Shown here in pieces: positions 1,290 through 53,573 of a stretch of 64,000 nucleotides of DNA. Numbering within the stretch: position 1 is the first letter of the stretch; each line of letters opens with the position of its first letter. The stretch is taken from NCBI GenBank assembly GCA_965219955.1, contig OZ244799.1, positions 1,125,915 to 1,189,914 on the forward strand. The letters run 5' to 3'. The translations under genes were made by a program, and so were the position numbers. Below the pieces are notes generated by a model. That model ran no database searches. It worked only from the letters and a program-made list of their open reading frames with translations, and was not told the origin of the DNA. This DNA comes from a bacterium. Lineage in GTDB: Bacteria; UBA8248.

Positions 1290-1670
1290 GGGGGGGAATT
1301 TGATTTGGTGATTGCATGGCCGTTTCTCGCAGGGGCGGTTGAAAAAACCGAGGAGAGAGGACCTACTCCCCCCGTGAGGCTGTTGAAAAAGCCTCGATGA
1401 ACGAGGGATGGCGAATTATGGCCGCGCTCGCCGCGGATGAAAATTTCAACCGTAGGGGCGGGCCTCCGTGCCCGCCCGTATCGGGAATGTCCATGCCCGT
1501 AAGAAACCTCGGACAGGCACGGAGGCCTGTCCCTACGGGGAACAATTCGATGATTGGGATTCCCTCTCTTCTCAGTAGGGACTTTTTCAACAACCCCCTC
1601 AAGGGGGGAGTGAAGTCCCCTCCATACTCGATCGGGTCCCCCCCTTGGTGGCAACCCCCGAAATCTGCTA
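1290..1670. repeat. Intergenic mosaic repeat block
   Basis: GTTGAAAAA-loop hairpins (~1335, ~1378). 'gtaggggcgggcctccgtgcccgccc' (~1455-1480). 'ggacaggcacggaggcctgtccctac' (~1511-1536) followed by the 'gaacaattcgatgattgggattccc' module. 'tttttcaacaaccccctcaaggggggagtgaag' (~1586-1618). Confidence 0.8.
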
Positions 1671-1730
1671 GAAATGAAGAAAACACCTGTACGGATTTCA
1701 TTGCGAACCCCGAACGACGAGGAGGCCGAG

Positions 1731-2321
1731 ATGTCGAGAATCACGCCGGTACCCGATGACGCCGCTGGCGATCACGAACCGCTCTTTGAGCAATCGAGGG
1801 AAAGATGGGGCACGGTGCCCAGCTTCTACCGCGCCCTGGCCCATTCGCCCGAAGCCCTGCGCCACATCATGAGCCTGACGGTGGCCCTGCGGAGCCAGTG
1901 GCGGACCGATTCGGCCAGGATGCGCCTGATGCAGCTTGCGATCCTGACGCCCTCGCTCATCAACGACTGCGAGATATGAACGAACCACAACGTCAAGCTT
2001 GGTCAAGCTGCCGGATTGAACGACGAACACATCGCCCTGATAGTCGATGGCTGGGAGGGGAGCGACCTGTTCGATGAGCGCGAAAAGGCGGTGATCCGCT
2101 GGGCGACGGCCCTCACGAGAAACACGGCCGCCGCGGACGACGCCTGTTTCGCGCCGCTTAAACAATTTTTCAGCGAAAAGGACATCGTGGAGCTCACCCT
2201 GTTCACCTGCCTGTTCAACGCCTGGAACCGCCTGCAGGACGGCCTCCACAACCCGGTGGAGCCGCCCGATGACATCATCGGCTGGAAGGAGTGGGAGGAA
2301 GTGGCGCAGGTGTCGGGGTAG
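1731..2321 (+). CDS. AhpD/carboxymuconolactone-decarboxylase-family protein with in-frame TGA (candidate selenocysteine, CxxU) at 1977-1979
   Basis: Track ORFs 1674-1979 and 2016-2321 share one frame and are separated only by TGA. Read-through gives 'SLINDCEI[TGA]TNHNVKLGQAAGLNDEHIALIV', which fits the AhpD core N-x-C-x-x-C-x-x-x-H ... G-L-x-x-E-x-I. ATG at 1731 is preceded by GAGGAGG. Confidence 0.7.
1996..2009 (+). promoter_or_regulatory. Candidate bacterial SECIS apical hairpin (AGCUU-GGUC-AAGCU)
   Basis: 5-bp stem capped by a GGUC tetraloop starting 19 nt after the TGA at 1977. CAA.../...UUG flanks could form a lower stem. Confidence 0.45.
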
Positions 2322-2658: not shown

Positions 2659-3453
2659 GTGGACTTAGGCATTAAAGGAAAATCGGCTCTGGTGACGGGC
2701 GGAAGCCGCGGTATCGGCAAAGAGACGGCGAGGCGCTTCCTCGAAGAGGGCGTCCGTGTCTTCACCTGCGCGAGAAACGAAGAACCTCTGGCGGAGACCT
2801 GCGCGCAATTGGCCGATGAGACGGGCGGCGAAATCCATTGCGTCGTGGCGGACACCTCGAACGACGCGGAACTCGCGCCCCTGGTCGAAAAAGCGCAGGA
2901 AAAGCTCGGCGCCATCGACATTCTCGTGAACAACGCGGGCACCATGAGCTCGGGCCGGTTCGAGGTGCTCGATGACGCCGGTCTCCAGAAACAACTCGAC
3001 ACCAAGCTGTTCGGCTTCCTGCGCCTCATCCGCCTGGTGGAGCCCGGGATGCGTGCGAAGGGGTGGGGCCGCATCGTGAACATGATCGGCGGCGCGGGCA
3101 AGGAGCCCGACCCCTACATGTTCGGGAGCGGCATGACGAACAGCGCGCTCCTGAACATGACGAAATCGCTTTCCACCGAATTCGGCGAGGCGGGCATTCA
3201 TGTGAACGCGGTGTGCCCCGGCTGGGTGGACACCGCGCTCTGGAGAATGAACGCCGAAGGCCTGGCGGCGGAACTCGCGGCGGAGTCGGAAGAAGAGGCC
3301 CGCCGGCGCGCGGCGCGCAAGAACGCGCTGGGCCGTTTCGGCAGGCCCGAAGAACTCGCCGACGCCATCGTCTTTCTCTGCTCCGAGCGCGCGAGCTACA
3401 TCACCGGAATTTCCCTGAATCTCGACGGCGGCAGGCTCAAGTCGTTGTGGTAA
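2659..3453 (+). CDS. SDR family oxidoreductase
   Basis: 'ALVTGGSRGIGKE' Rossmann motif, 'NNAG', and typical 264-aa length. Confidence 0.85.
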   Translation: MDLGIKGKSALVTGGSRGIGKETARRFLEEGVRVFTCARNEEPLAETCAQLADETGGEIHCVVADTSNDAELAPLVEKAQEKLGAIDILVNNAGTMSSGRFEVLDDAGLQKQLDTKLFGFLRLIRLVEPGMRAKGWGRIVNMIGGAGKEPDPYMFGSGMTNSALLNMTKSLSTEFGEAGIHVNAVCPGWVDTALWRMNAEGLAAELAAESEEEARRRAARKNALGRFGRPEELADAIVFLCSERASYITGISLNLDGGRLKSLW

Positions 3454-3459
3454 GGATGG

Positions 3460-4020
3460 CGATGCTGCTCAGGTCGTCATTCCGGCAATCAATGCCGACC
3501 GAGGAGGGAGGGATTGCCCGGAATCCATTTTCAAGCAGAATGGCAATACGCTGGCTTTTCATCTCCTCGTCATCGGTGCGAATCAATAAAGAAAAAACAA
3601 AGGCAGAACAAATGGATTCCGGCTTTCGCCGGAATGACGGTGAGCGAGATATCGATTTGTAGGGGCGGTTCGCGAACCGCCCCTACGGGATACCCGACGC
3701 GAGGAGAAATCAACTCCCCCCTTGAGGGGGAGTCGAAGAGGCCGAGCGTTTTTTGCGAAGGCCGATTCGGTGGGGGGTGAAACGCGTTTTATCGCCACCC
3801 GAATTATCCCCCCCACCGAGTCAGCCTTCACCTGTCGGTTCGGCTTCCTCGACTCCCCCTCAAGGGGGGAGTGATTGGTTGGCGCTCTGCAAGGGAGGAG
3901 TAAGGTTTCATCCCTCCATGGTCGGCTCTATCTGTGGAATCACGAGATCAGGGCTTTTTCAACAGCCCCCTCAAGGGGGGAGTGAATATAAAACACCTCA
4001 AATCTTATTTCCCTCGAACC
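3460..4020. repeat. Intergenic mosaic repeat block including a variant MITE-like element (3476-3638)
   Basis: Interrupted left TIR 'gtcattccggcaatc...cccggaatccatttt' and intact right TIR 'aaatggattccggctttcgccggaatgac' (3610-3638). 'gtaggggcggttcgcgaaccgcccctac' (3660-3687). Three 'ctcccccctcaaggggggag' hairpins and one 'tttttcaacag' module. Confidence 0.8.
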
Positions 4021-5425: not shown

Positions 5426-6325
5426 ATGTCGGGTCTTTTCGCACAGGCAGGCTTGGGGGAATTGCTGGCGGTAGGAGCGTCGCTTTGCTATTCGACGTCG
5501 CTCATCGCCATCCGCCAGGGGGTGCGCAGCGCGACGCCGATAGCGGGCGTGCTGATATTGAGTTCGACCGTCTCGGTCCTGGGGCTCATCATCGCGGCCG
5601 CCCGCGGCACGCTCCAGGAATCCATGCTCACGCCCGTCTTGATCTTCATGCTCGGCGGCTGCCTGGGGCAGGGCGTGGGGCAGCTCACGAACGCCATCGG
5701 CATCGAGAGGATGGGCGTGAGCCGCTCCGTGCCGATTCAATCGTCCACCCCCATCTTCTCGGTCACCTTCGCGATGATGTTTCTCGGCGAGCGGCCCGGT
5801 GTCGGCGTGGCGATGGGGACGGTTCTGATCGTGGCGGGCGTCTGCCTGCTCTCGCTGGGCGAGCGGCGCGCGGACCAGAGTTTCAAGAGCTTCTTTCAGG
5901 GCGGGCTGGTCTATCCGCTCACCTCATCGCTCTCCTATGCGCTGCTGCCCGTGCTGGCGAACGTCGCCTTCTCCTACCAGAAAACCCCCATCCTGGGCTT
6001 CGCCTGCGCCTTCACCGCCGGTACGCTTCTGCTGGCGGTAACGCGCCCCCTGCTGCCCGGCGGCGGCAAGCTCGAAGCCGACAGGAGGGCCGTCTACCTC
6101 TTTCTCGGCGCAGGCGTCACCACCACGCTCGCGGCCATCATGTTCTGGACGGCGATGAGCATCGCGCCCGTCTCGACCGTGCTGCCGCTGAGCAGGCTCG
6201 TGCCCCTGTGGGTGGTGCTGTGGACCTATCTCTTCCTGGGCGGGCTCGAGCGCATCACCTCGCGCATCGTCCTGGCGGCGGGGATGGTCGTGGCGGGCGG
6301 CGTGCTGATCACCGCCTTCAAGTAG
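5426..6325 (+). CDS. DMT (EamA) family transporter, paralog 2
   Basis: 299 aa, collinear with paralogs 1 and 3 (e.g. 'SRxxPIQxSxPIxxVxFAxxFLGExPG', 'LPLSRLVPLWVVL'). Confidence 0.8.
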   Translation: MSGLFAQAGLGELLAVGASLCYSTSLIAIRQGVRSATPIAGVLILSSTVSVLGLIIAAARGTLQESMLTPVLIFMLGGCLGQGVGQLTNAIGIERMGVSRSVPIQSSTPIFSVTFAMMFLGERPGVGVAMGTVLIVAGVCLLSLGERRADQSFKSFFQGGLVYPLTSSLSYALLPVLANVAFSYQKTPILGFACAFTAGTLLLAVTRPLLPGGGKLEADRRAVYLFLGAGVTTTLAAIMFWTAMSIAPVSTVLPLSRLVPLWVVLWTYLFLGGLERITSRIVLAAGMVVAGGVLITAFK

Positions 6326-8351: not shown

Positions 8352-11087
8352 CTACCGTTTCCTCGGCTTCCTCACCCGCACGGCGCAGAACTTGAACTCG
8401 GGGATTTTCCCGTAGGGGTCCAAGTCGTCCACCGTGAGCAGGTTCGCGGCGGCCTCGACGTAGTGGAACGGGATGAAGACCTGCCCGGGCCGCACCCGCG
8501 AAGAAGCCCGGGCGGGGAGGGTGATCTCCCCCCGTCTCGATTCCACCAGAACGTCCGAATCGTCTCTGATCTTCAGGCGTTTCAGGTCTTCGGGCGACAT
8601 CTCGACATAAGGCCCCGGTTCCGCGGCCTCCAGCGCCTGCGCCCTTCTGGTGATGGCCCCGGTGTGCCAGTGGTAGATGTTCCGCCCCGTGTTGAGCACG
8701 AAGGGGTAGTCGTCGTCCGGCATCTCCCTGGCGGGCGCGTACTGGACGGGAATGAGCTTGCCGGGTCCTGAGGGAAACGATTTGTCGAAGAGGATTTCCC
8801 TGCCCTTGTGATTGGGCCTTGTGCACGGCCAGACGAGTCCGTGACGCCCCAGCCGGTCGTAGGACATCCCCGCCATGAAGGGCGTCAAGGATGCGATTTC
8901 ATCGAAAATTTCAGATTCCGACCCATATTCCATCGGGTATCCGAGGCGTTCCGAGAGTTCGGCCACGATGCGCCAGTCCTCGCGCGCCTCGCCGGGCGGA
9001 TCGATGGCGCGTCTGCCGATCTGGACTCTGCGGTCGGTGTTCGTATAGGTGCCCGTTTTTTCGAAAAAAGCCGTGGAGGGGAGGACGACGTCCGCGAAAT
9101 AGGCGGTTTCCGTCAGAAAAATGTCCTGGACGACGAGGAATTCGAGGTTCGCCAGCGCGCCGCGCGAGTGGTTGAGATTGGGGTCGCTCATGGCCGGGTT
9201 CTCGCCCATGATGTACATGCCCCTTATCTCGCCCCGGTTGGCGGCGTCGGCGATCTCCATCACGGTGAGGCCGGGCTCGGGGTCGAGCTTGCGGCCCCAG
9301 GCCTTTTCGAATTTCCTGCGTATCGCGGGCGAGGCGACGTCCTGATAGGCGGAATAGACCATCGGGATGAGGCCCACGTCCGACGCGCCCTGCACGTTGT
9401 TCTGCCCGCGCAGGGGGTGGAGTCCCGTTCCCTCCCGCCCGATCTGCCCGCAGATGAGGCAAAGCGCGATGAGCGCGCGGCAGTTGTCCGTGCCGTGGGT
9501 GTGCTGGGAGAGGCCCATGCCCCAGAAGGTCATGCTGCGCGCGGAGGTCGCGTACCCCCTGGCCAGTTCCCGGAGCGTTTCGGCGGGGACGCCGGTGAGT
9601 TTGGCGACGTTCTCAGGCGTGTAGGGCTTTACGTTTTCCGCGAGTTCGGGGAATCCCTCGGTGCGCGCGGCGATGAAGTCGGCGTCGTAGAGTTTCTCCT
9701 CGATCACCACGTTCAACAGCCCGTTGAACAGCGCCACGTCCGTGCCGGGGCGGAACTGAACGAACATGTCCGCGTGGTCGACCAGGTCGATTCTCCTCGG
9801 GTCGACCACGGCCAGCGTGGCGCCAGCGCTTGCGGCCTGCTTGATGAAGGTGGCCGCCACGGGGTGGTTTTCCGTGGCGTTGGCCCCCGCCACGAGGATG
9901 AAATCGGCTTTGAGGGCATCCGAGAAGGGGTTGCTCACCGCGCTCGAGCCGATGGTCTGGAACAGGGCGGCCACCGAGCTCGAGTGGCAGAGCCGCGTGC
10001 AGTGGTCCACGTTGTTCGTCCCGAATACGGCGCGGATGAGCTTCTGGAAGAGGTAGTTGTCTTCGTTCGAGCATTTGGCCGAACCGAAGCCGGCCATGCT
10101 CGAGGGGCCGTGGGCCTCGTGGATTTTCCCCAGCGAGGCCGCCGCCAGGTCCATGGCTTCCTCCCAACTCGCCTCGCGGAACAGGGAGAGCGGCTCTCCG
10201 GGCAGTTCCCTCGTCTTGGGCGCGCCTTCCTTGCGGATGAGGGGGGTCGTGAGGCGATCCGGATGGTGGGCGTAGTCGAACCCGTAGCGCCCCTTCACGC
10301 AGAGCCTCCCCTGGTTCACGGGACTCGTCTCGTCCCCCCGGACGCTCAGGAGGGTATTGCCGGCCACCTGGTAGGAGATGGAGCAGCCCACGCCGCAGTA
10401 GGGGCAGACGGAATCCACCTCTCTGGGCTTGCCGGGGGCGATTTGCAGCGTGAGAGATTTATTGGTGAGCGCGTCCGTGGGGCAGGCGGCCATGCACTCC
10501 CCGCACGAGACGCACGTGGATTCGCCCATGGGGAGGTCCGCGTCGAACACGATTTTCGCGCTCGAACCCTTGCCGCCCCGCCCGATGACGTTGTTGCCCT
10601 GAACGTCCGTGCAGGCGCGGATGCAGCGGTCGCACAGGATGCACGCGCTGTGATCCACGGCGATGACGGCGGATGAGAAATCCTGCGCCCGCTCCGTATC
10701 CTTGGGCGGCAGGGCGCTTACGCCGTTTTTGGCTTCGAGCTGCCCGGCGAGCGCGGTGAGTTCGCAGTTCACGGATTCGGATTCCGCGCCGTGGTCCGCC
10801 ATCAGCATGGCCACCAGCGTTTTCTGGGCGCGCGCGACGCGCTCGCTGGCCGTTTGGATCACCATGCCGGGCTCGACCTTCCGGTGGCAGGAGGGAACGA
10901 GCGTCCGCGCGCCCTCGACCTCGACGGCGCACACGCGGCACACGCCCACGGGCTCCATGCCGGGCTGGTGGCAGAGCCTGGGGATCTCGACGCCCGTCGA
11001 CTGCGCCGCCTCCCAGATGGTCGCGCCGGCCCCGGCCTTTATCTTTCGGCCGTCGATGGTGATGGCGATCGTCTTGTCGTCAGGCAT
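8352..11087 (-). CDS. NAD-dependent formate dehydrogenase alpha subunit (molybdopterin oxidoreductase, FdsA/FdhA-like, Cys-type)
   Basis: N-terminal 2Fe-2S ('CHQPGMEPVGVCRVCAVEV') and two 4Fe-4S ferredoxin motifs ('CILCDRCIRAC', 'CVSCGECMAACP'). MopB 4Fe-4S motif 'CPYCGVGC'. Catalytic-site region 'VDHCTRLCHSSSVAAL'. 911 aa. Confidence 0.9.
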   Translation of the reverse strand: MPDDKTIAITIDGRKIKAGAGATIWEAAQSTGVEIPRLCHQPGMEPVGVCRVCAVEVEGARTLVPSCHRKVEPGMVIQTASERVARAQKTLVAMLMADHGAESESVNCELTALAGQLEAKNGVSALPPKDTERAQDFSSAVIAVDHSACILCDRCIRACTDVQGNNVIGRGGKGSSAKIVFDADLPMGESTCVSCGECMAACPTDALTNKSLTLQIAPGKPREVDSVCPYCGVGCSISYQVAGNTLLSVRGDETSPVNQGRLCVKGRYGFDYAHHPDRLTTPLIRKEGAPKTRELPGEPLSLFREASWEEAMDLAAASLGKIHEAHGPSSMAGFGSAKCSNEDNYLFQKLIRAVFGTNNVDHCTRLCHSSSVAALFQTIGSSAVSNPFSDALKADFILVAGANATENHPVAATFIKQAASAGATLAVVDPRRIDLVDHADMFVQFRPGTDVALFNGLLNVVIEEKLYDADFIAARTEGFPELAENVKPYTPENVAKLTGVPAETLRELARGYATSARSMTFWGMGLSQHTHGTDNCRALIALCLICGQIGREGTGLHPLRGQNNVQGASDVGLIPMVYSAYQDVASPAIRRKFEKAWGRKLDPEPGLTVMEIADAANRGEIRGMYIMGENPAMSDPNLNHSRGALANLEFLVVQDIFLTETAYFADVVLPSTAFFEKTGTYTNTDRRVQIGRRAIDPPGEAREDWRIVAELSERLGYPMEYGSESEIFDEIASLTPFMAGMSYDRLGRHGLVWPCTRPNHKGREILFDKSFPSGPGKLIPVQYAPAREMPDDDYPFVLNTGRNIYHWHTGAITRRAQALEAAEPGPYVEMSPEDLKRLKIRDDSDVLVESRRGEITLPARASSRVRPGQVFIPFHYVEAAANLLTVDDLDPYGKIPEFKFCAVRVRKPRKR

Positions 11088-11102
11088 TGTTCAGCCCCGC
11101 CG

Positions 11103-12752
11103 TCATTTCAGTCTCGTTTCGATATCCGACTCGAAGTATTCGAAAAGCGAGAGATACGGAATCGGCGCGGCCTGGCCCAGGCCGCAGATGGATGTGTCCT
11201 TCATGGCCTCGCATATCTCGCGCATGGCGGGCAGCTCAGAGGCCAGCGCCTCGCCGCTTAAGGCCCGCTCCAGAAAGGCGGTGAGCTTCTCCGTCCCCAG
11301 GCGGCAGGGCACGCACTTGCCGCAGGATTCGTCCCTGAAAAAGCGCACCACGTTGTGGGCGAGCGCCACCATGTCCACCCCCTCGGGGATGACGACGAGC
11401 GCCCCGCTGCCCAGCATGCTGCCCGCCTCCTGCAGGGAGTCGAAGTCGTATGGAATGTCGACGAGGCTCGCGGGCAGAAACCCGCTGCTGGCCCCGCCGG
11501 GCGAGAACGCCTTCAGGTGCGCGCCAGCAGTCAGGCCGCCCGCGGGGCCTTCTATAATCTCCCGGATCGGCGTTCCGAACTCCACCTCGTAGACCCCCGG
11601 TTTCCTGACCGCGCCGCTCACGCCCACCACCTTGAAGCCTTGGCTCCCGTTCCGCCCGAAGGAGGTGAACCATTCCGCTCCTTTCTTGAGCACCGCCGGG
11701 ATGAGCGCGAAGGTCTCGACGTTGTTGATGAGGGTGGGCTTGCCGAAAAGACCCGCCGTGCCTGGGAAGGGGGGCTTGTCGCGGGGCTGGGCGCGCTTGT
11801 CCTCCAGGACTTCCAGGAGCGCCGTCTCCTCCCCGCAGATGTACCCGCCGGGACTCGTAAAGATTTCGAGGCTCGGTGTTGTTTTCGTGTCGATCAAGCG
11901 CGCCTTGCGCGCGCGCTCGATGGCGCGTCCCAGCTTTCTCGCCTGCGCGCCGTATTCATGGCGTATGTAGATGATGGCGCGCCCGGCCCCCACGGCCCGG
12001 CAGGCGATGAGTATTCCCTCGACGACGAGCTCGGGGTGCGAGTCCATGATGGCGCGGTCCTTGAACGTGCCCGGCTCGCTCTCATCGGCGTTGCAGACGA
12101 CGAATTTCTCTTTGGCCTGCGCGCTCAGGACGAAACGCCACTTGAGCCCTGCCGGAAAGCCGGCCCCGCCCATGCCGCGCAGGCCGCTCTCCTTCAGGAC
12201 ATCGATGACGCTTTCCGGCTTGTCGTTTTTCATCAACGCTCGCAGGACGCCGAAGGCCCCGTTCCTGCGGTAAGGGTTGATTCGCGATGCGTGCCTGAGT
12301 TTTTGCGCTCTCGAGGCGGGGCTTGGACGTCCATTTTTCCAGGACGCGATGATGCCCTGAAATTTTTCATCCGTGAGAGAGGAATAGATGCGGCCTTCTA
12401 TCTCGGCGGCGGGACCCTTGTCGCACCGGCCCAGGCAGGCGCAGCTTTCGGGGCGGAGGTCCCGGATTCCGGCGCGGCGGGCGAGATTATTCGCGTTGTC
12501 CAGCAACGCGGCGCCGCCAGCGAGCAGGCAGCTCATGTCCCGGCAGACCTGGACTTTCGGTTTCGGGGGTTTTTCCAGGTGAAAGTGCGGGAAAAAGCTG
12601 GCGATGCCGTAGGAATCGTAGATGGGAACGCCCAGGTCTTTGGAGACCTCGGTGATCGCTTCTTTCGAGAGATAGCCTTCTTCTTTCTGGCGGGAGAGCA
12701 GGGCCTCGATTTTGGCGGGAGACTTGTAGACCGTGGAAGCGTTTTCTGTCAT
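11103..12752 (-). CDS. NADH-dehydrogenase subunit F-like protein with fused NuoE-like 2Fe-2S domain (formate dehydrogenase beta, FdsB/FdsG-like)
   Basis: 'GLRGMGGAGFPAGLKWRF' FMN/NADH site, C-terminal 'ESCGKCVPCRLG' 4Fe-4S motif, and an N-terminal thioredoxin-like 'CRDMSC...CLGRCDKGPA'. 15 bp upstream of fdhA. Confidence 0.88.
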   Translation of the reverse strand: MTENASTVYKSPAKIEALLSRQKEEGYLSKEAITEVSKDLGVPIYDSYGIASFFPHFHLEKPPKPKVQVCRDMSCLLAGGAALLDNANNLARRAGIRDLRPESCACLGRCDKGPAAEIEGRIYSSLTDEKFQGIIASWKNGRPSPASRAQKLRHASRINPYRRNGAFGVLRALMKNDKPESVIDVLKESGLRGMGGAGFPAGLKWRFVLSAQAKEKFVVCNADESEPGTFKDRAIMDSHPELVVEGILIACRAVGAGRAIIYIRHEYGAQARKLGRAIERARKARLIDTKTTPSLEIFTSPGGYICGEETALLEVLEDKRAQPRDKPPFPGTAGLFGKPTLINNVETFALIPAVLKKGAEWFTSFGRNGSQGFKVVGVSGAVRKPGVYEVEFGTPIREIIEGPAGGLTAGAHLKAFSPGGASSGFLPASLVDIPYDFDSLQEAGSMLGSGALVVIPEGVDMVALAHNVVRFFRDESCGKCVPCRLGTEKLTAFLERALSGEALASELPAMREICEAMKDTSICGLGQAAPIPYLSLFEYFESDIETRLK

Positions 12753-12889: not shown

Positions 12890-13720
12890 CGCGAGGGGGT
12901 GTAGGGACAGGTCGCGACCTCGGACAGGCGCAGAAGCCTGTCCGCTACGGCCGATTCGTTCACCAGCGATCCGCGCGAAACCTCCTCCTCATCCTGAGTA
13001 GGCGCGCAAGCGCCGTATCGAAGGATGGAAGACGCTACTTCCTCGGAGGCAAGAATTTCGCCCTTCGACAGGCTCAGGACAGGCCCCTTCGATACGCGGT
13101 TCCGCCGCTACTCAGGGTGAGGAAGGTGGGGGGCGGAGTTTGCCCCGAGCGAAGTCGATGGGCGGCTACCCAGGGTGAGGCGGAGCGGCGGGTTGCTCAG
13201 GGGGTCAAGCGCGAGCGATGAAGGGCTGTTGAAAAACCCTATCCGACCTTCAAGATTGTTCGCCGTAGGGACAGGCCTCCGTGCCTGTCCCTGTGAAGCG
13301 CAACCACGGGGATCGACATATCCGATACGGGCGGCCACGGGGGGCAGGGCGGCCTCTGGGGATCGCCCTGCTACGGGGGCATGCGGTTTTGTTCGTCATT
13401 CCGGCGAAAGCCGGAATCCATTTCCGCCTTTGCCTTTTCGTCCCCTCGTTTCGGACGTCTTTACTTACGGGCGGGGAGGAGCGGAATCGAACACAAAAAC
13501 GAAAGGCGAATTCTCTGGATTCCGCATACGGACGCAGCGCAACAACAAGGTCTTGGCGCACCTCCCGATGAAAAGTCAAAATGGATTCCGGCTTTCGCCG
13601 GAATGACGGCGGTTCTCCCGCATGGAGGGGCGGTTGAAAAACCCGGAGAGGGAAAATTTGTTTGCGTGTATGTCGGACATGTATGTCCGACATACATGCG
13701 ACCCTGATTTTTTTAACCCA
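12890..13720. repeat. Intergenic mosaic repeat block inside the largest gene-free tract (12753-13914)
   Basis: The block is built almost entirely from modules seen elsewhere. These include 'gtagggacagg...' palindromes, a 'cctcatcctgagtagg...ctactcagggtgagg' long inverted repeat (12987-13123), GTTGAAAAA hairpins, a MITE-like element, and the palindrome 'gtcggacatgtatgtccgac' (13672-13691). Confidence 0.85.
13395..13607. mobile_element. MITE-like non-autonomous element, copy 1 (213 bp, 29-bp terminal inverted repeats)
   Basis: Left TIR 'gtcattccggcgaaagccggaatccattt' and right TIR 'aaatggattccggctttcgccggaatgac'. The internal sequence is collinear with copies at 43981-44196 and 59502-59714. 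No ORF. Confidence 0.7.
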
Positions 13721-39957: not shown

Positions 39958-40476
39958 ATGCCCCTGCCGATGATGAACCGGGTTTTTATGTTCAAGACGA
40001 CGAAAATAGGGCACGTTGGGTTCTGGACCAAAGACCTGGACCGGATGCAGGATTTCTACACCCGCGTGCTGGGCTTCAAGGTAACGAGCAGGAGCGGACC
40101 GGGAGCGAAAGTACCCGGCGGGGCTTCGGTATTTTTACGGTGCGACGTCACCCATCATGAGGTCGTTTTCTTCCAGTCCCCGGAGGATGCCCCGGGGCTG
40201 TACCCCGCATCGGGCAATTCCATGGCGGAGGCCAAGCCGGGATTTCAGCACGTCGCTTTCGAGTTGCCGGACAGGGGAGAGTGGCTCAAGGCGCTTCGGC
40301 ACCTGAAAGAGTGCGGCGTCAGGATCGAATACGGTCCCCTGGTCCACGGCCCCGAGGGAGACGGGTTCGAGGCGGGCAGCGGGAACCGCGCTTTTTATTT
40401 CTGCGACCCGGACGGGAACTACATCGAGTTGTATTGCGACATCGACACGTTTCACGAAGAAGAGGAGAATTCCTGA
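39958..40476 (+). CDS. VOC family protein (glyoxalase/extradiol dioxygenase fold)
   Basis: 'IGHVGFWTKDLDRMQDFYTRVLGFKV', 'HHEVVF', 'FQHVAFEL', 'FYFCDPDGNYIELY'. The start codon is uncertain (39958, 39970 or 39988). Confidence 0.8.
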   Translation: MPLPMMNRVFMFKTTKIGHVGFWTKDLDRMQDFYTRVLGFKVTSRSGPGAKVPGGASVFLRCDVTHHEVVFFQSPEDAPGLYPASGNSMAEAKPGFQHVAFELPDRGEWLKALRHLKECGVRIEYGPLVHGPEGDGFEAGSGNRAFYFCDPDGNYIELYCDIDTFHEEEENS

Positions 40477-44250: not shown

Positions 44251-45660
44251 GCCCACGAGAATGCAAGCGGTTTTTGGGGAGGGTTCGGCGCAAAGCGGTT
44301 CGGCTCAGTCGTATATCCGGCCTCTTCGTTGCGGCGCTTTACTCTGGCCGCGGGCCCGTATGGAGATAGGTGGACCGGGTCCAAATCGCCCTCGTGAGCT
44401 CGGTGGCTCTGGACACGCATCTGGTTTTCCCGATCCCGTCTCGATGACCGTTTGCCCTTACCCTTCCTCCGGCCTGCTCACATTCCTCCCGGCTCTATCC
44501 GTGCGCCCGCCGCTCAGGCGAGGGGCGCCGGCTCCCTGTAGACATCCTTGTTCCGCATCAGCGCCCACGCGATGCGCGCCATCCGGTTCGCCAGCGCCAC
44601 CGCCACCACCTTCCTCGGCTTGCGCGCCAGCATCCGCGCCAGCCACGGACACGGCGGCTTCCGGCGACGCCCCGCCCAGCGTATCTCCGACATCGCGCCC
44701 GATATCAACAGACGCCTCACGTCGCGCTGGCCCATCTTCGACATGCCCCCCAGACGGGGCTTGCCCCCCGTGGAGTGCTGCCGGGGAACCAGACCCAGCC
44801 AGGCCGAGAAGTCACGGCCCCGACGGAAGTTCTCCACCGGCGGCGCGAACGCCCGGATCGCCGACGCCGTAATCGGACCAACACCCGGGATGCTCATCAG
44901 ACGCCGCGCCTCCTCGTCCGCGTATGCGCTCGCCCGGAGCCGTCCGGTCAACTCCCGGACCTTCGCATCGAGGCCGCCAATCTGGGCGAGCAGAATCCCG
45001 CCCAACTCGCGGACCTCCTCGGGCAGGCCCGATTCCGCTCCCCGAACCGCCGCCGCCAGCCGTGTGAGGCCCACGGGCCCTTGCCGCTCGACGACCCCGA
45101 ACTCCGCCAGGTGGCTGCGCAGCGCGTTGCGCGCCTGCGTGCGCTGACCCACCAGCAAATCCCGCGTGCGGTACTCCATCCCACACCCCTGCTGCGCTTC
45201 GCTCTTCACCGCCACGAAGCGCATCGTCGCCCGGGTGGCCGCCTCGCAAATGGCCTCCGCATCCGCCGCGTCGTTCTTGTGGCGCTTCACGTAGGGCTTC
45301 ACGTAGACCGGCGGCATGAGCCGAACCTCATGGCCGAGCTTGCCGACCTCGCGCCCCCAGTAGTGCGCGCTCGCGCACGCCTCCATCGCCACCACGCATC
45401 GAGGCTGCGACGACAGAAACTCCAGCACCTTCGCCCGCGTCAGCTTCTTGCGGAACGCGACCCGCCCGTCCGCCCACGCGCCGTGGAGTTGAAAACTGTG
45501 TTTCGCCAAGTCGACCCCGATGATGTAGACTCCTCCCATGGTCGTCTCCTTCCGGGCGGTGTGTGACGTCGTCTCGCCACATTCTAATCCGCCGGAAGGA
45601 GGCGTCCACCCCATCGCCCAATCGCTCGGACGAAAACACCGAAAGCGGGAGCACACACAG
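44240..45660 (-). mobile_element. IS110-family insertion sequence (boundaries approximate)
   Basis: The transposase CDS is flanked by unique, non-repeat sequence at 44250-44513 and 45540-45659. The right edge abuts a truncated palindromic repeat at 45660-45685. No terminal inverted repeats are expected for this family. Confidence 0.55.
44514..45539 (-). CDS. IS110 family transposase (DEDD recombinase)
   Basis: 'IIGVDLAKHSF', 'VVAMEACASAHYW', 'KNDAADAEAI', and the C-terminal 'MSIPGVGPITASAIRAF' motif. ATG 45539 follows AGGAGA. Confidence 0.9.
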   Translation of the reverse strand: MGGVYIIGVDLAKHSFQLHGAWADGRVAFRKKLTRAKVLEFLSSQPRCVVAMEACASAHYWGREVGKLGHEVRLMPPVYVKPYVKRHKNDAADAEAICEAATRATMRFVAVKSEAQQGCGMEYRTRDLLVGQRTQARNALRSHLAEFGVVERQGPVGLTRLAAAVRGAESGLPEEVRELGGILLAQIGGLDAKVRELTGRLRASAYADEEARRLMSIPGVGPITASAIRAFAPPVENFRRGRDFSAWLGLVPRQHSTGGKPRLGGMSKMGQRDVRRLLISGAMSEIRWAGRRRKPPCPWLARMLARKPRKVVAVALANRMARIAWALMRNKDVYREPAPLA

Positions 45661-45751
45661 TCAGACATATATGTCTAACCCCTACGCCGAACCACTCAAT
45701 TGGGGCTTTTACAACACCTCCCCCTATGCCGCCTGGGAAAATCTTTACCGG

Positions 45752-52736: not shown

Positions 52737-53573
52737 CTATTGCGCCTGCACGATGGGCGTGTCGTCGCGGTTGCCCCATTCCTTCCAGGAGCTCATGTAG
52801 TTTTTTACCCTGGGGTAGTCCAGGAGCCGCAGGGCGAAGTAACCGTGCGCCGCACGGTAGCCCGTCTGTCAGTAGGCGGTCACTTCTTTTTCGGGCGTGA
52901 CGCCGATGGCCTCGAACTGCGCGCGAAGCTCATCGGCTGGCTTCATCTCGCCCTCGGGCGTCAGGTGCTGGAGCCACTCCTGCCAGACCGCGCCGGGGAT
53001 GATGCCGCTGCGCCTGGCGCGCGTGCTGCGCCCCTCCCACTCCTCAACCGAGCGGGTGTCGAGCAGCATGTGGTTGTCGTCCTCGATGGCCGCCAGAACG
53101 TCCTCGCGCGTGGCGAGTCGGCCCGGCTCGAACGCCATCTCGAATGCGGTGGCCTTGGGCACTTCGGCGTCGCGCGTCGTCTCGTAGCCCGCCCGCTCCC
53201 AGGCGCGGTAGCCGCCGTCGAGCACGTGGACGTCCTTGTGGCCGAAAAGCTCCAGCATCCAGAAGCCGCGCACGCTCGTGTTGCCGACGAAGTCGTCGTA
53301 GAAGACGATGGTGTTCTCGAACGACACCCCGCGGTTCCCCAGCAGAAACGCCCACATGGCGAAGAAATTCCTCAAGGGCGCCTCGTCCGAATCGTCGCTG
53401 TTCACGCCGTAGACGTCGAAGTGCCGCGCGCCGGGGATGTGGCCCATCGTGTAGCGCTCGCCGGGGCGCGTGTCGATGATTCTTAAACCAGGGTCGTCCA
53501 TGCGTGTTTTAAGTTGTTCGGCCGACCAGAGCAGGCCGGGGTTCGCATACCCTTTCGGGTTGTCGCTCGTCAT
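52737..53573 (-). CDS. Two-domain rhodanese-like sulfurtransferase with in-frame TGA (candidate selenocysteine) at the active-site Cys position (codon 52869-52871)
   Basis: Track ORF 52869-53573 ends '...PEKEVTAY' at TGA. The same frame continues 'QTGYRAAHGYFALRLLDYPRVKNYMSSWKEWGNRDDTPIVQAQ' to TAG at 52737. This gives the rhodanese loop Y-[C/U]-Q-T-G-Y-R-A and a normal 278-aa length. Confidence 0.75.
52842..52858 (-). promoter_or_regulatory. Candidate bacterial SECIS hairpin (ACCGUGC-GGC-GCACGGU)
   Basis: Perfect 7-bp stem with a GGC apical loop. The stem starts 10 nt after the UGA, and the loop G residues sit at positions 21-22 counted from the U of UGA. Confidence 0.5.

Follow-up and report, generated by a model that had tools for sequence, protein, structure and literature searches.

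An AhpD-like gene interrupted by an in-frame TGA codon

The window analyzed here is a stretch of 64,000 nucleotides (nt) from a bacterial genome (GTDB lineage UBA8248; contig OZ244799.1 of assembly GCA_965219955.1, positions 1,125,915 to 1,189,914), and close to its left end lies a candidate selenoprotein gene of the AhpD-like family. The listing of open reading frames (ORFs) reports two ORFs of 101 amino acids each on the plus strand, at 1674-1979 and 2016-2321. Both belong to one frame, which is broken between 1674 and 2321 by a single TGA at 1977-1979, as an earlier note made from the letters alone had described. Read-through across this codon gives ...SLINDCEI-[TGA]-TNHNVKLGQAAGLNDEHIALIVDGW..., and we reproduced that product exactly as it had been written there. 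Judged from the sequence, both “half genes” are parts of a single gene, whose predicted product is a small redox enzyme.

The start codon is most likely ATG 1731, because a Shine-Dalgarno-like AGGAGG (1720-1725, plus strand) lies 5 nt upstream of it and because the resulting N terminus, MSRI or MPRI, is common to the relatives and to full-length homologues that carry cysteine (Cys) in place of the TGA. From this start, the complete AhpD-like (COG2128/TIGR01926-type) gene occupies 1731-2321 on the plus strand, with 196 codons and a TAG stop at 2319-2321. Its TGA at 1977-1979 is codon 83, the proposed selenocysteine (Sec, U) codon, which aligns with the second Cys of a CxxC motif. The first residue of the corresponding C-x-x-U is Cys80 (TGC, 1968-1970), and three residues past the TGA follows His86 (CAC, 1986-1988); both are invariant in alignments A1 and A4. 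The predicted peptide that spans position 83 would read LMQLAILTPSLINDCEI-U-TNHNVK. Gene callers had been expected to truncate or miss such a gene, and this is what has happened in public data, where the orthologue is stored as unnamed fragments of 82 and 109 amino acids. Storage of the gene and its orthologues in two fragments hides the catalytic residue and the whole protein from function prediction, and the same applies to a rhodanese-like gene at 52737-53573 (see below).

Family, fold, and redox motif

Family models were searched with the read-through protein in which U was replaced by C. The best NCBIfam match is TIGR01926, “peroxidase-related enzyme” (E = 1.1e-18, 67.7 bits, model positions 5 to 176 of 178), and the Pfam carboxymuconolactone decarboxylase (CMD) model PF02627 is matched with 19.8 bits (E = 7.7e-4). 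The PF02627 alignment had been proposed as a check in the earlier note; its score stays below the Pfam gathering threshold. PDB chains of the AhpD fold match the read-through protein over residues 38-179, with E = 1.8e-17 for the single sequence and 5.5e-26 for a profile. The structures matched are 2gmy, PA0269 (2o4d), 6k40 (“AhpD”), 2oyo/2pfx (“peroxidase-related”), and Bmp8 (6ohi), and their alignments, which start at about residue 5 to 40 and end at residues 175-180, cover both sides of the TGA. Membership in the AhpD/CMD superfamily is thus indicated by similarity over the whole core domain as well as by a CxxC-type motif that is followed by His.

The TGA column corresponds to the second Cys of CxxC in all matched AhpD-fold structures. 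Among full-length Cys homologues, the nearest ones (P0002-4, about 40% identity) read CEYC or CAYC, and their second Cys occupies the TGA column, so that homologues and solved structures agree with the earlier claim that the TGA falls on the second redox Cys. The local motif is N-x-C-x-x-U-x-x-H, namely, C80-E-I-U83-T-N-H86, with His at +3. The motif N-x-C-x-x-C-x-x-x-H first suggested for this gene was correct in the placement of the CxxC and the TGA and incorrect in the spacing of the His, which is at +3 here instead of +4. Close Cys homologues also have His at +3 (CxxCxxHN). In 6k40 and 2gmy, His is at +4, and a one-residue gap brings His86 into register with the CxxCxxxH His of 6k40.

Conservation of the TGA and selection beyond it

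Relatives of the gene were found in 18 species-representative genomes (81 to 99% amino acid identity), several of them labelled Nitrospinota or Nitrospinaceae and the rest only “bacterium”, in five metagenome contigs (68 to 96%), and in one short scaffold from ENA (63%), to which a protein search had led. TGA is present at codon 83 in all 24 relatives (62 to 99% amino acid identity, mostly from Nitrospinota-labelled MAGs); a TGC or TGT at 1977-1979, raised beforehand as a possible reading of this codon, has no counterpart in any of these independent assemblies. In the window and the 23 full-length relatives, no other stop and no indel occurs over 188 codons, and the relatives continue past the site rather than ending naturally at it. 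The best nucleotide identity of the window gene to any relative is 92 to 96%, and none is identical. According to Nei-Gojobori estimates of the ratio of nonsynonymous to synonymous substitution rates (dN/dS) between the window and its relatives, codons 1-82 evolve at 0.04 to 0.21 and codons 84-188 at 0.03 to 0.11. From the latter values, we infer that the portion 3' of the TGA is translated in the same frame. The gene thereby shows what is looked for in a selenoprotein gene: an in-frame UGA that aligns with Cys and is conserved, with purifying selection downstream of it.

Species-representative genomes and metagenome contigs, each scanned once, yielded 162 loci of the family, and the Sec or Cys state of each locus was taken from a tblastn read-out of the column. 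The second-Cys column holds TGA in 82 loci and TGC or TGT in the other 80, and it never holds TAA or TAG. The TGA forms fall into at least six sequence groups. At the first-Cys column, 158 loci have C and 4 have S; SxxC variants, in which replacement of the first Cys by Ser leaves a single-Cys motif, were seen in L046, L089, L090, and L092.

A betaproteobacterial clade also has CxxU (L048, L051, L053, L055, L058-L060, L062-L064, L066, L069, L070, and L072-L074, with the TGA at about locus position 3250). Some metagenome-assembled genomes (MAGs) of this clade carry unlikely species labels, such as Bordetella parapertussis, Chitinophaga pinensis, and Streptomyces sp. Among the close relatives, the 953-bp ENA scaffold (L002) has a 2-nt deletion at about positions 540 to 560, upstream of the TGA and absent from every other relative, which shifts the frame of the called ORF. 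The deletion is either an assembly error or the mark of a decaying copy; the scaffold retains the TGA and a compensated hairpin of the kind described next.

A SECIS-like hairpin in the TGA forms

Downstream of the TGA, at 1996-2009 on the plus strand, lies a hairpin that resembles a selenocysteine insertion sequence (SECIS), AGCUU-GGUC-AAGCU, with a 5-bp stem (1996-2000/2005-2009) and the tetraloop GGUC at 2001-2004. Stem and tetraloop are present just as the earlier note had given them. Its distance of “nineteen nt downstream” is right only if counted from the U of the UGA; the gap between the UGA and the stem is 16 nt, and that between the UGA and the loop is 21 nt. In bacteria, the apical loop of a SECIS contains G and lies 16 to 37 nt past the UGA (PMC10778597), a minimal SECIS hairpin has 5 or 6 bp (PMC4607533), and in the SECIS of Escherichia coli fdhF, the loop nucleotides G23 and U24 contact the elongation factor SelB (PMC8659212). 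The window hairpin has a G-bearing loop within the 16- to 37-nt range and lies inside the ORF.

Such a structure is rare at TGA trinucleotides of the window. Of 1727 TGAs, 32 are followed at 15 to 25 nt by a tetraloop hairpin of at least 5 bp, 2 of these hairpins have a GGNN loop, and 1 has GGTC; this sole GGTC case belongs to the TGA of the AhpD-like gene. Across the family, none of the 80 Cys forms has a GGNN tetraloop on a stem of 5 bp or more 15 to 25 nt past the column, whereas 57 of the 82 TGA forms do. If any hairpin with 5 bp or more is counted, the number of TGA forms rises to 79 of 82, and most TGA forms that lack the GGNN tetraloop have, in the same place, a stem of 7 to 8 bp with a GGC or GUC triloop. 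With 82 TGA and 80 Cys forms in a single family, a minimal GGUC-loop hairpin of 5 to 7 bp can thus be seen to track the Sec codon.

The stems vary in a compensatory manner. In the close clade, the pairs AGCUU/AAGCU, CGGCUU/AAGCCG, GGCUC/GAGCC, and GGCUU/AAGCC are found, and other TGA clades have GUGCUU/AAGCAC, UCGCCU/GGGCGA, GAGCUC/GAGCUC, and CGGCUC/GAGCCG, with GGUC, GGUU, or GGAC as the loop. When 20 distinct sequences are aligned with the loop as a hand-set anchor, a procedure that biases pairing counts upward, 99 of the 100 cells of the five inner pairs hold standard pairs, and one position shows four pair types. Covariation scores 0.453, compared with 0.214 ± 0.028 in shuffles, and this score drops when the partners are slid against each other. 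In the betaproteobacterial hairpin (UCGCCU-GGUC/GGUU-GGGCGA), the loop is 17 nt from the UGA, compared with 21 nt in the window, and it lies in another codon phase and encodes other residues; therefore, the hairpin is no by-product of the peptide sequence. As a speculation, the Sec form and its GGUC-loop SECIS could have moved horizontally between phyla as a unit.

The nucleotide alignment of the relatives also delimits a block of suppressed synonymous variation, 1980-2014 (plus strand), which holds the SECIS-like element. At about codons 76-95, the entropy of synonymous codons falls to 0.15 to 0.25, its minimum in the gene, whose mean is 0.58. Within the block, 4 of 12 codons vary, compared with 76% elsewhere.

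Interpretation of codon 83

The unity of the gene, the correspondence of its TGA with a Cys, the conservation of this TGA in all relatives, the selection beyond it, and the hairpin specific to TGA forms across the family are observations, and they support the earlier proposal of a candidate selenoprotein. We think that codon 83 directs the SelB/SECIS-dependent insertion of Sec into an oxidoreductase of the AhpD fold, where Sec83 would form a redox pair with Cys80 and act as the nucleophile, and on the sequence evidence we give this interpretation a probability of about 0.88. In the mechanism envisaged, a SelB-type elongation factor carrying Sec-tRNA(Sec) would bind the mRNA hairpin at 1996-2009 when the ribosome arrives at the UGA, and Sec would be inserted at 1977-1979 without termination. 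Sec83 would then take the place of the second Cys in the C80-x-x-C83 pair, with His86 following. By analogy with AhpD, Sec83 would attack a peroxide, sulfenate, or disulfide substrate, after which Cys80 would resolve the intermediate to a selenenylsulfide and a cellular reductant would recycle the enzyme.

Several points weigh against this interpretation. (i) The hairpin is modest. Its stem comprises only 5 bp, 3 of which are A-U; the bulged U required by E. coli SelB is absent; and Rfam yields no SECIS match, either in the window at the gathering threshold or in 1900-2120 at E ≤ 10. Folded by itself, the hairpin has a minimum free energy of about -5 kcal/mol, not better than that of shuffled sequences (z scores of +1.4, +0.9, and -0.35 for three cuts). 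The significance as a single-sequence feature that the earlier note had implied was thus not upheld, and thermodynamic stability was dropped as evidence after these folds in favor of the comparative data, which for their part carry the bias of the hand-made anchoring. An extended lower stem, CGAACC/GGUUUG, was rejected, as it shows no covariation and its variable positions mostly break pairs. (ii) The family scores are low. The TIGR01926 score of 67.7 bits misses the curated cut-off of 81.8 despite the full-length alignment, which indicates a divergent relative and no certified member, and the PF02627 score of 19.8 bits misses the gathering score of 23. The enzymatic role, presumably the reduction of a peroxide or of a peroxiredoxin, is drawn from the fold only. 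(iii) Neither the 64-kb window nor the flanks fetched yielded selA, selB, selD, or the gene for tRNA(Sec). ARAGORN reported no tRNA for the window and none for 27 related loci, and ten long ORFs of the window, picked by size as selA, selB, or selD candidates, revealed none of these genes when scanned against Pfam.

On the other hand, two lines of evidence support Sec decoding in this organism indirectly. A second candidate selenoprotein gene exists in the same window (see below), and BSepDB ranks certain MAGs of the GTDB phylum UBA8248, under the names Nitrospinota, Nitrospinaceae, or Nitrospinae, among the ten most selenoprotein-rich bacteria, with 48 to 54 selenoprotein genes each (PMC13326102). 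Judging by NCBI labels, the window presumably belongs to that phylum.

The alternative that survives best, improbable as we consider it, is recoding of the UGA to a residue other than Sec, be it by a SelB-dependent Cys tRNA, by near-cognate read-through with Trp or Cys, or by a lineage-wide change of the code. It draws on the fact that the identity of the inserted residue is deduced and that no Sec machinery was directly observed. A code change is contradicted by the window itself, in which TGA ends many other well-supported genes, and therefore the standard genetic code is used. Against the remaining variants stand the position of the signal and its G-rich apical loop, which are typical of a SECIS bound by SelB (PMC10778597, PMC8659212), the documented existence of a Sec-containing family (PMC1088965, PMC2398784), and the second gene of the window with a TGA in its active site.

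True termination at the TGA fares worse, and we regard it as very unlikely. It would leave either an AhpD-like protein split into two polypeptides or the 82-amino-acid first piece only. Both halves are open and under selection, and a TTG at 2016 of the window could start the second ORF. However, no start codon is conserved 3' of the TGA: TTG 2016 is replaced by CTG in many relatives, and GTG is found only in L019. In addition, codons 84-95, including His86, are strongly conserved and yet lie 5' of any candidate start, the stop coincides with the column of a catalytic Cys and is followed by a hairpin specific to TGA forms, and the AhpD fold runs unbroken across the site. The weakest alternative, a pseudogene or a sequencing or assembly error that turned the Cys codon TGC or TGT into TGA, gains something from the fragmented public gene calls and from the 2-nt deletion of L002, and is excluded, as far as such data can do so, by conservation and selection: the TGA recurs in all 24 relatives, which are diverged and come from independent assemblies, and in 82 loci of the family, its column never holds TAA or TAG, full-length relatives have no other stops or indels, and dN/dS downstream is 0.03 to 0.11.

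A second candidate selenoprotein gene

Interrupted genes were sought in the window by a codon-usage log-likelihood scan, which replaced a scan based on GC content at third codon positions that had been too unspecific. Among 737 in-frame TGAs, 3 have a coding signal on both sides: that of the AhpD-like gene, an antisense artifact, and one at 52871 on the minus strand. Two scan hits were rejected: that at 5739 (minus strand) runs antisense to an EamA gene, and that at 40474 (plus strand) consists of two adjacent genes.

The TGA at 52869-52871 belongs to a candidate selenoprotein gene of the two-domain rhodanese/3-mercaptopyruvate sulfurtransferase type (52737-53573, minus strand, 278 codons), which matches the NCBIfam 3-mercaptopyruvate sulfurtransferase model with E = 6e-42. 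The local sequence is Y-U-Q-T-G-Y-R, with the TGA at the active-site Cys, and full-length homologues have YCQTGYRS. Its relatives (72 to 97% identity) are all called as 234-amino-acid truncations that end at the TGA codon. A SECIS-like hairpin, ACCGUGC-GGC-GCACGGU (52842-52858, minus strand; 7 bp, GGC loop), begins 10 nt past the UGA. Relatives of 75 to 79% amino acid identity show not a single nucleotide difference in the TGA and the 30 nt that follow it, and synonymous changes resume beyond. These features suggest that the rhodanese-like gene probably encodes a further selenoprotein. One and probably two selenoproteins would thereby be added to a lineage whose NCBI label matches that of unusually selenoprotein-rich MAGs.

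Gene neighborhood and dispersed repeats

The surroundings of the AhpD-like gene are syntenic with those in the relative L001 (about 80% nucleotide identity). The shared genes encode a PIG-L deacetylase, the AhpD-like protein, an SDR, an ABM-domain protein, and EamA transporters, as well as a molybdopterin oxidoreductase with a NuoF-like partner. No gene for AhpC or a peroxiredoxin was noted adjoining the AhpD-like gene. The oxidoreductase of L001 is formate dehydrogenase-like, with Fer2, Fer4, and Molybdopterin domains. Its syntenic counterpart in the window (8352-12752, minus strand) consists of an uninterrupted ORF of 911 amino acids followed by one of 549 amino acids, the latter syntenic with the NuoF-like gene; because the 911-amino-acid ORF has no internal TGA, it cannot carry Sec. 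Farther away, at 44514-45668 (minus strand), lies an IS110-family transposase gene with DEDD_Tnp_IS110 and Transposase_20 domains.

Two families of dispersed repeats occur in intergenic regions of the window. A palindromic repeat resembling repetitive extragenic palindromes (REP), GGACAGGC-N6-GCCTGTCC-CTACGGG, stands on both sides of the AhpD-like gene, at 1450-1478 (minus strand), 1511-1539, 2396-2424, and 2551-2579, and recurs in other intergenic regions, with copies at 13263, 29748, 43898, 59820, and 59886; its core has 8 matches, compared with 0.13 expected. The second family, TTTTTCAACANCCCCCTCAAGGGGGGAGTGAA, contains the palindrome CCCCCTCAAGGGGGG and has 6 copies, compared with 0 expected, at 1579-1614, 3713-3745 (minus strand), 3840-3875, 3951-3986, 29862, and 39603, several of them clustered at 3700-4000.

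Comparison with known systems

The E. coli fdhF SECIS is a minimal 17-nt upper stem-loop 11 nt past the UGA, with G23 and U24 in the apical loop and a bulged U17. The window hairpin shares with it the short form, the location inside the ORF, the apical loop GGUC, and a similar distance from the UGA. It differs in that it has no bulged U on the 5' strand, comprises 5 bp only, and has no supported lower stem, and its binding by SelB is a prediction. Counting from the U of the UGA as 1, we reckon from the numbering of PMC8659212 that the fdhF loop spans nucleotides 22-25; the loop occupies positions 25-28 in the window and 21-24 in the betaproteobacterial relatives.

In its fold, the read-through protein resembles Mycobacterium tuberculosis AhpD and the structures 6k40, 2gmy (Atu0492), 2o4d (PA0269), and 2oyo/2pfx, with which it shares an all-helical core and a CxxC-type motif followed by His over residues 5-179. 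The nucleophile of AhpD is the second Cys, whose position would be held by Sec in the window protein. Sequence identity to these proteins is low, and they are Cys proteins with CxxCxxxH, unlike the window protein with its proposed Sec. The tetrabromopyrrole debrominase Bmp8 (6ohi/6ohj) likewise has an AhpD fold, and its alignment to the family profile covers residues 12-180 (E = 8.5e-15). It is a Cys enzyme that matches less well than the peroxidase-related structures do, and no context of halogen metabolism was seen around the window gene. By analogy with Bmp8 and, chemically, with the Sec-dependent deiodinases, the CxxUxxH clade could consist of Sec-dependent reductive dehalogenases or other small-molecule reductases and not of peroxide-detoxifying AhpD proteins, a conjecture that we regard as a long shot. 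The isolate names of some close relatives' MAGs presumably point to sponge metagenomes, which we take to be rich in brominated metabolites.

Two curated models of the AhpD superfamily allow Sec, namely, NF053654 (“YciW-related (seleno)protein”) and NF041238 (“alkylhydroperoxidase-related (seleno)protein”, AhpD_rel_CFYUT). The window protein shows weak full-length similarity to them and scores far below both cut-offs (54.6 against 310 and 19.6 against 175, respectively), and so it is a member of neither equivalog family.

The closest known system is the AhpD-like selenoprotein family. An AhpD-like CxxU protein was first reported as a new selenoprotein family in 2005, with 27 sequences from Sargasso Sea data (PMC1088965). 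In the Global Ocean Sampling data of 2008, “AhpD-like 1” (COG2128, CxxU) was the fourth most abundant family, with 299 sequences compared with 902 Cys homologues (PMC2398784), and a 2026 review lists an “AhpD-like protein, TIGR01926, CxxU” (PMC13188914). The Sec-containing AhpD-like proteins that the earlier note mentioned from surveys are therefore well documented and have been known since 2005, and our findings leave the knowledge of selenoprotein biology unchanged. The window gene shares with them the fold family, a CxxU motif with Sec proposed as the second residue, a SECIS-like element in the ORF just past the UGA, and widespread Cys homologues. It differs from them in its score below the TIGR01926 cut-off, in the His at +3 (CxxUxxH), in belonging to a clade specific to Nitrospinota-labelled MAGs, and in having orthologues that appear in the protein collection searched as unnamed split fragments. 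Because of the missed cut-off and the shorter CxxUxxH spacing, the gene is, on sequence grounds, best placed as a divergent member beside the known AhpD-like CxxU selenoproteins and not as a certified one.

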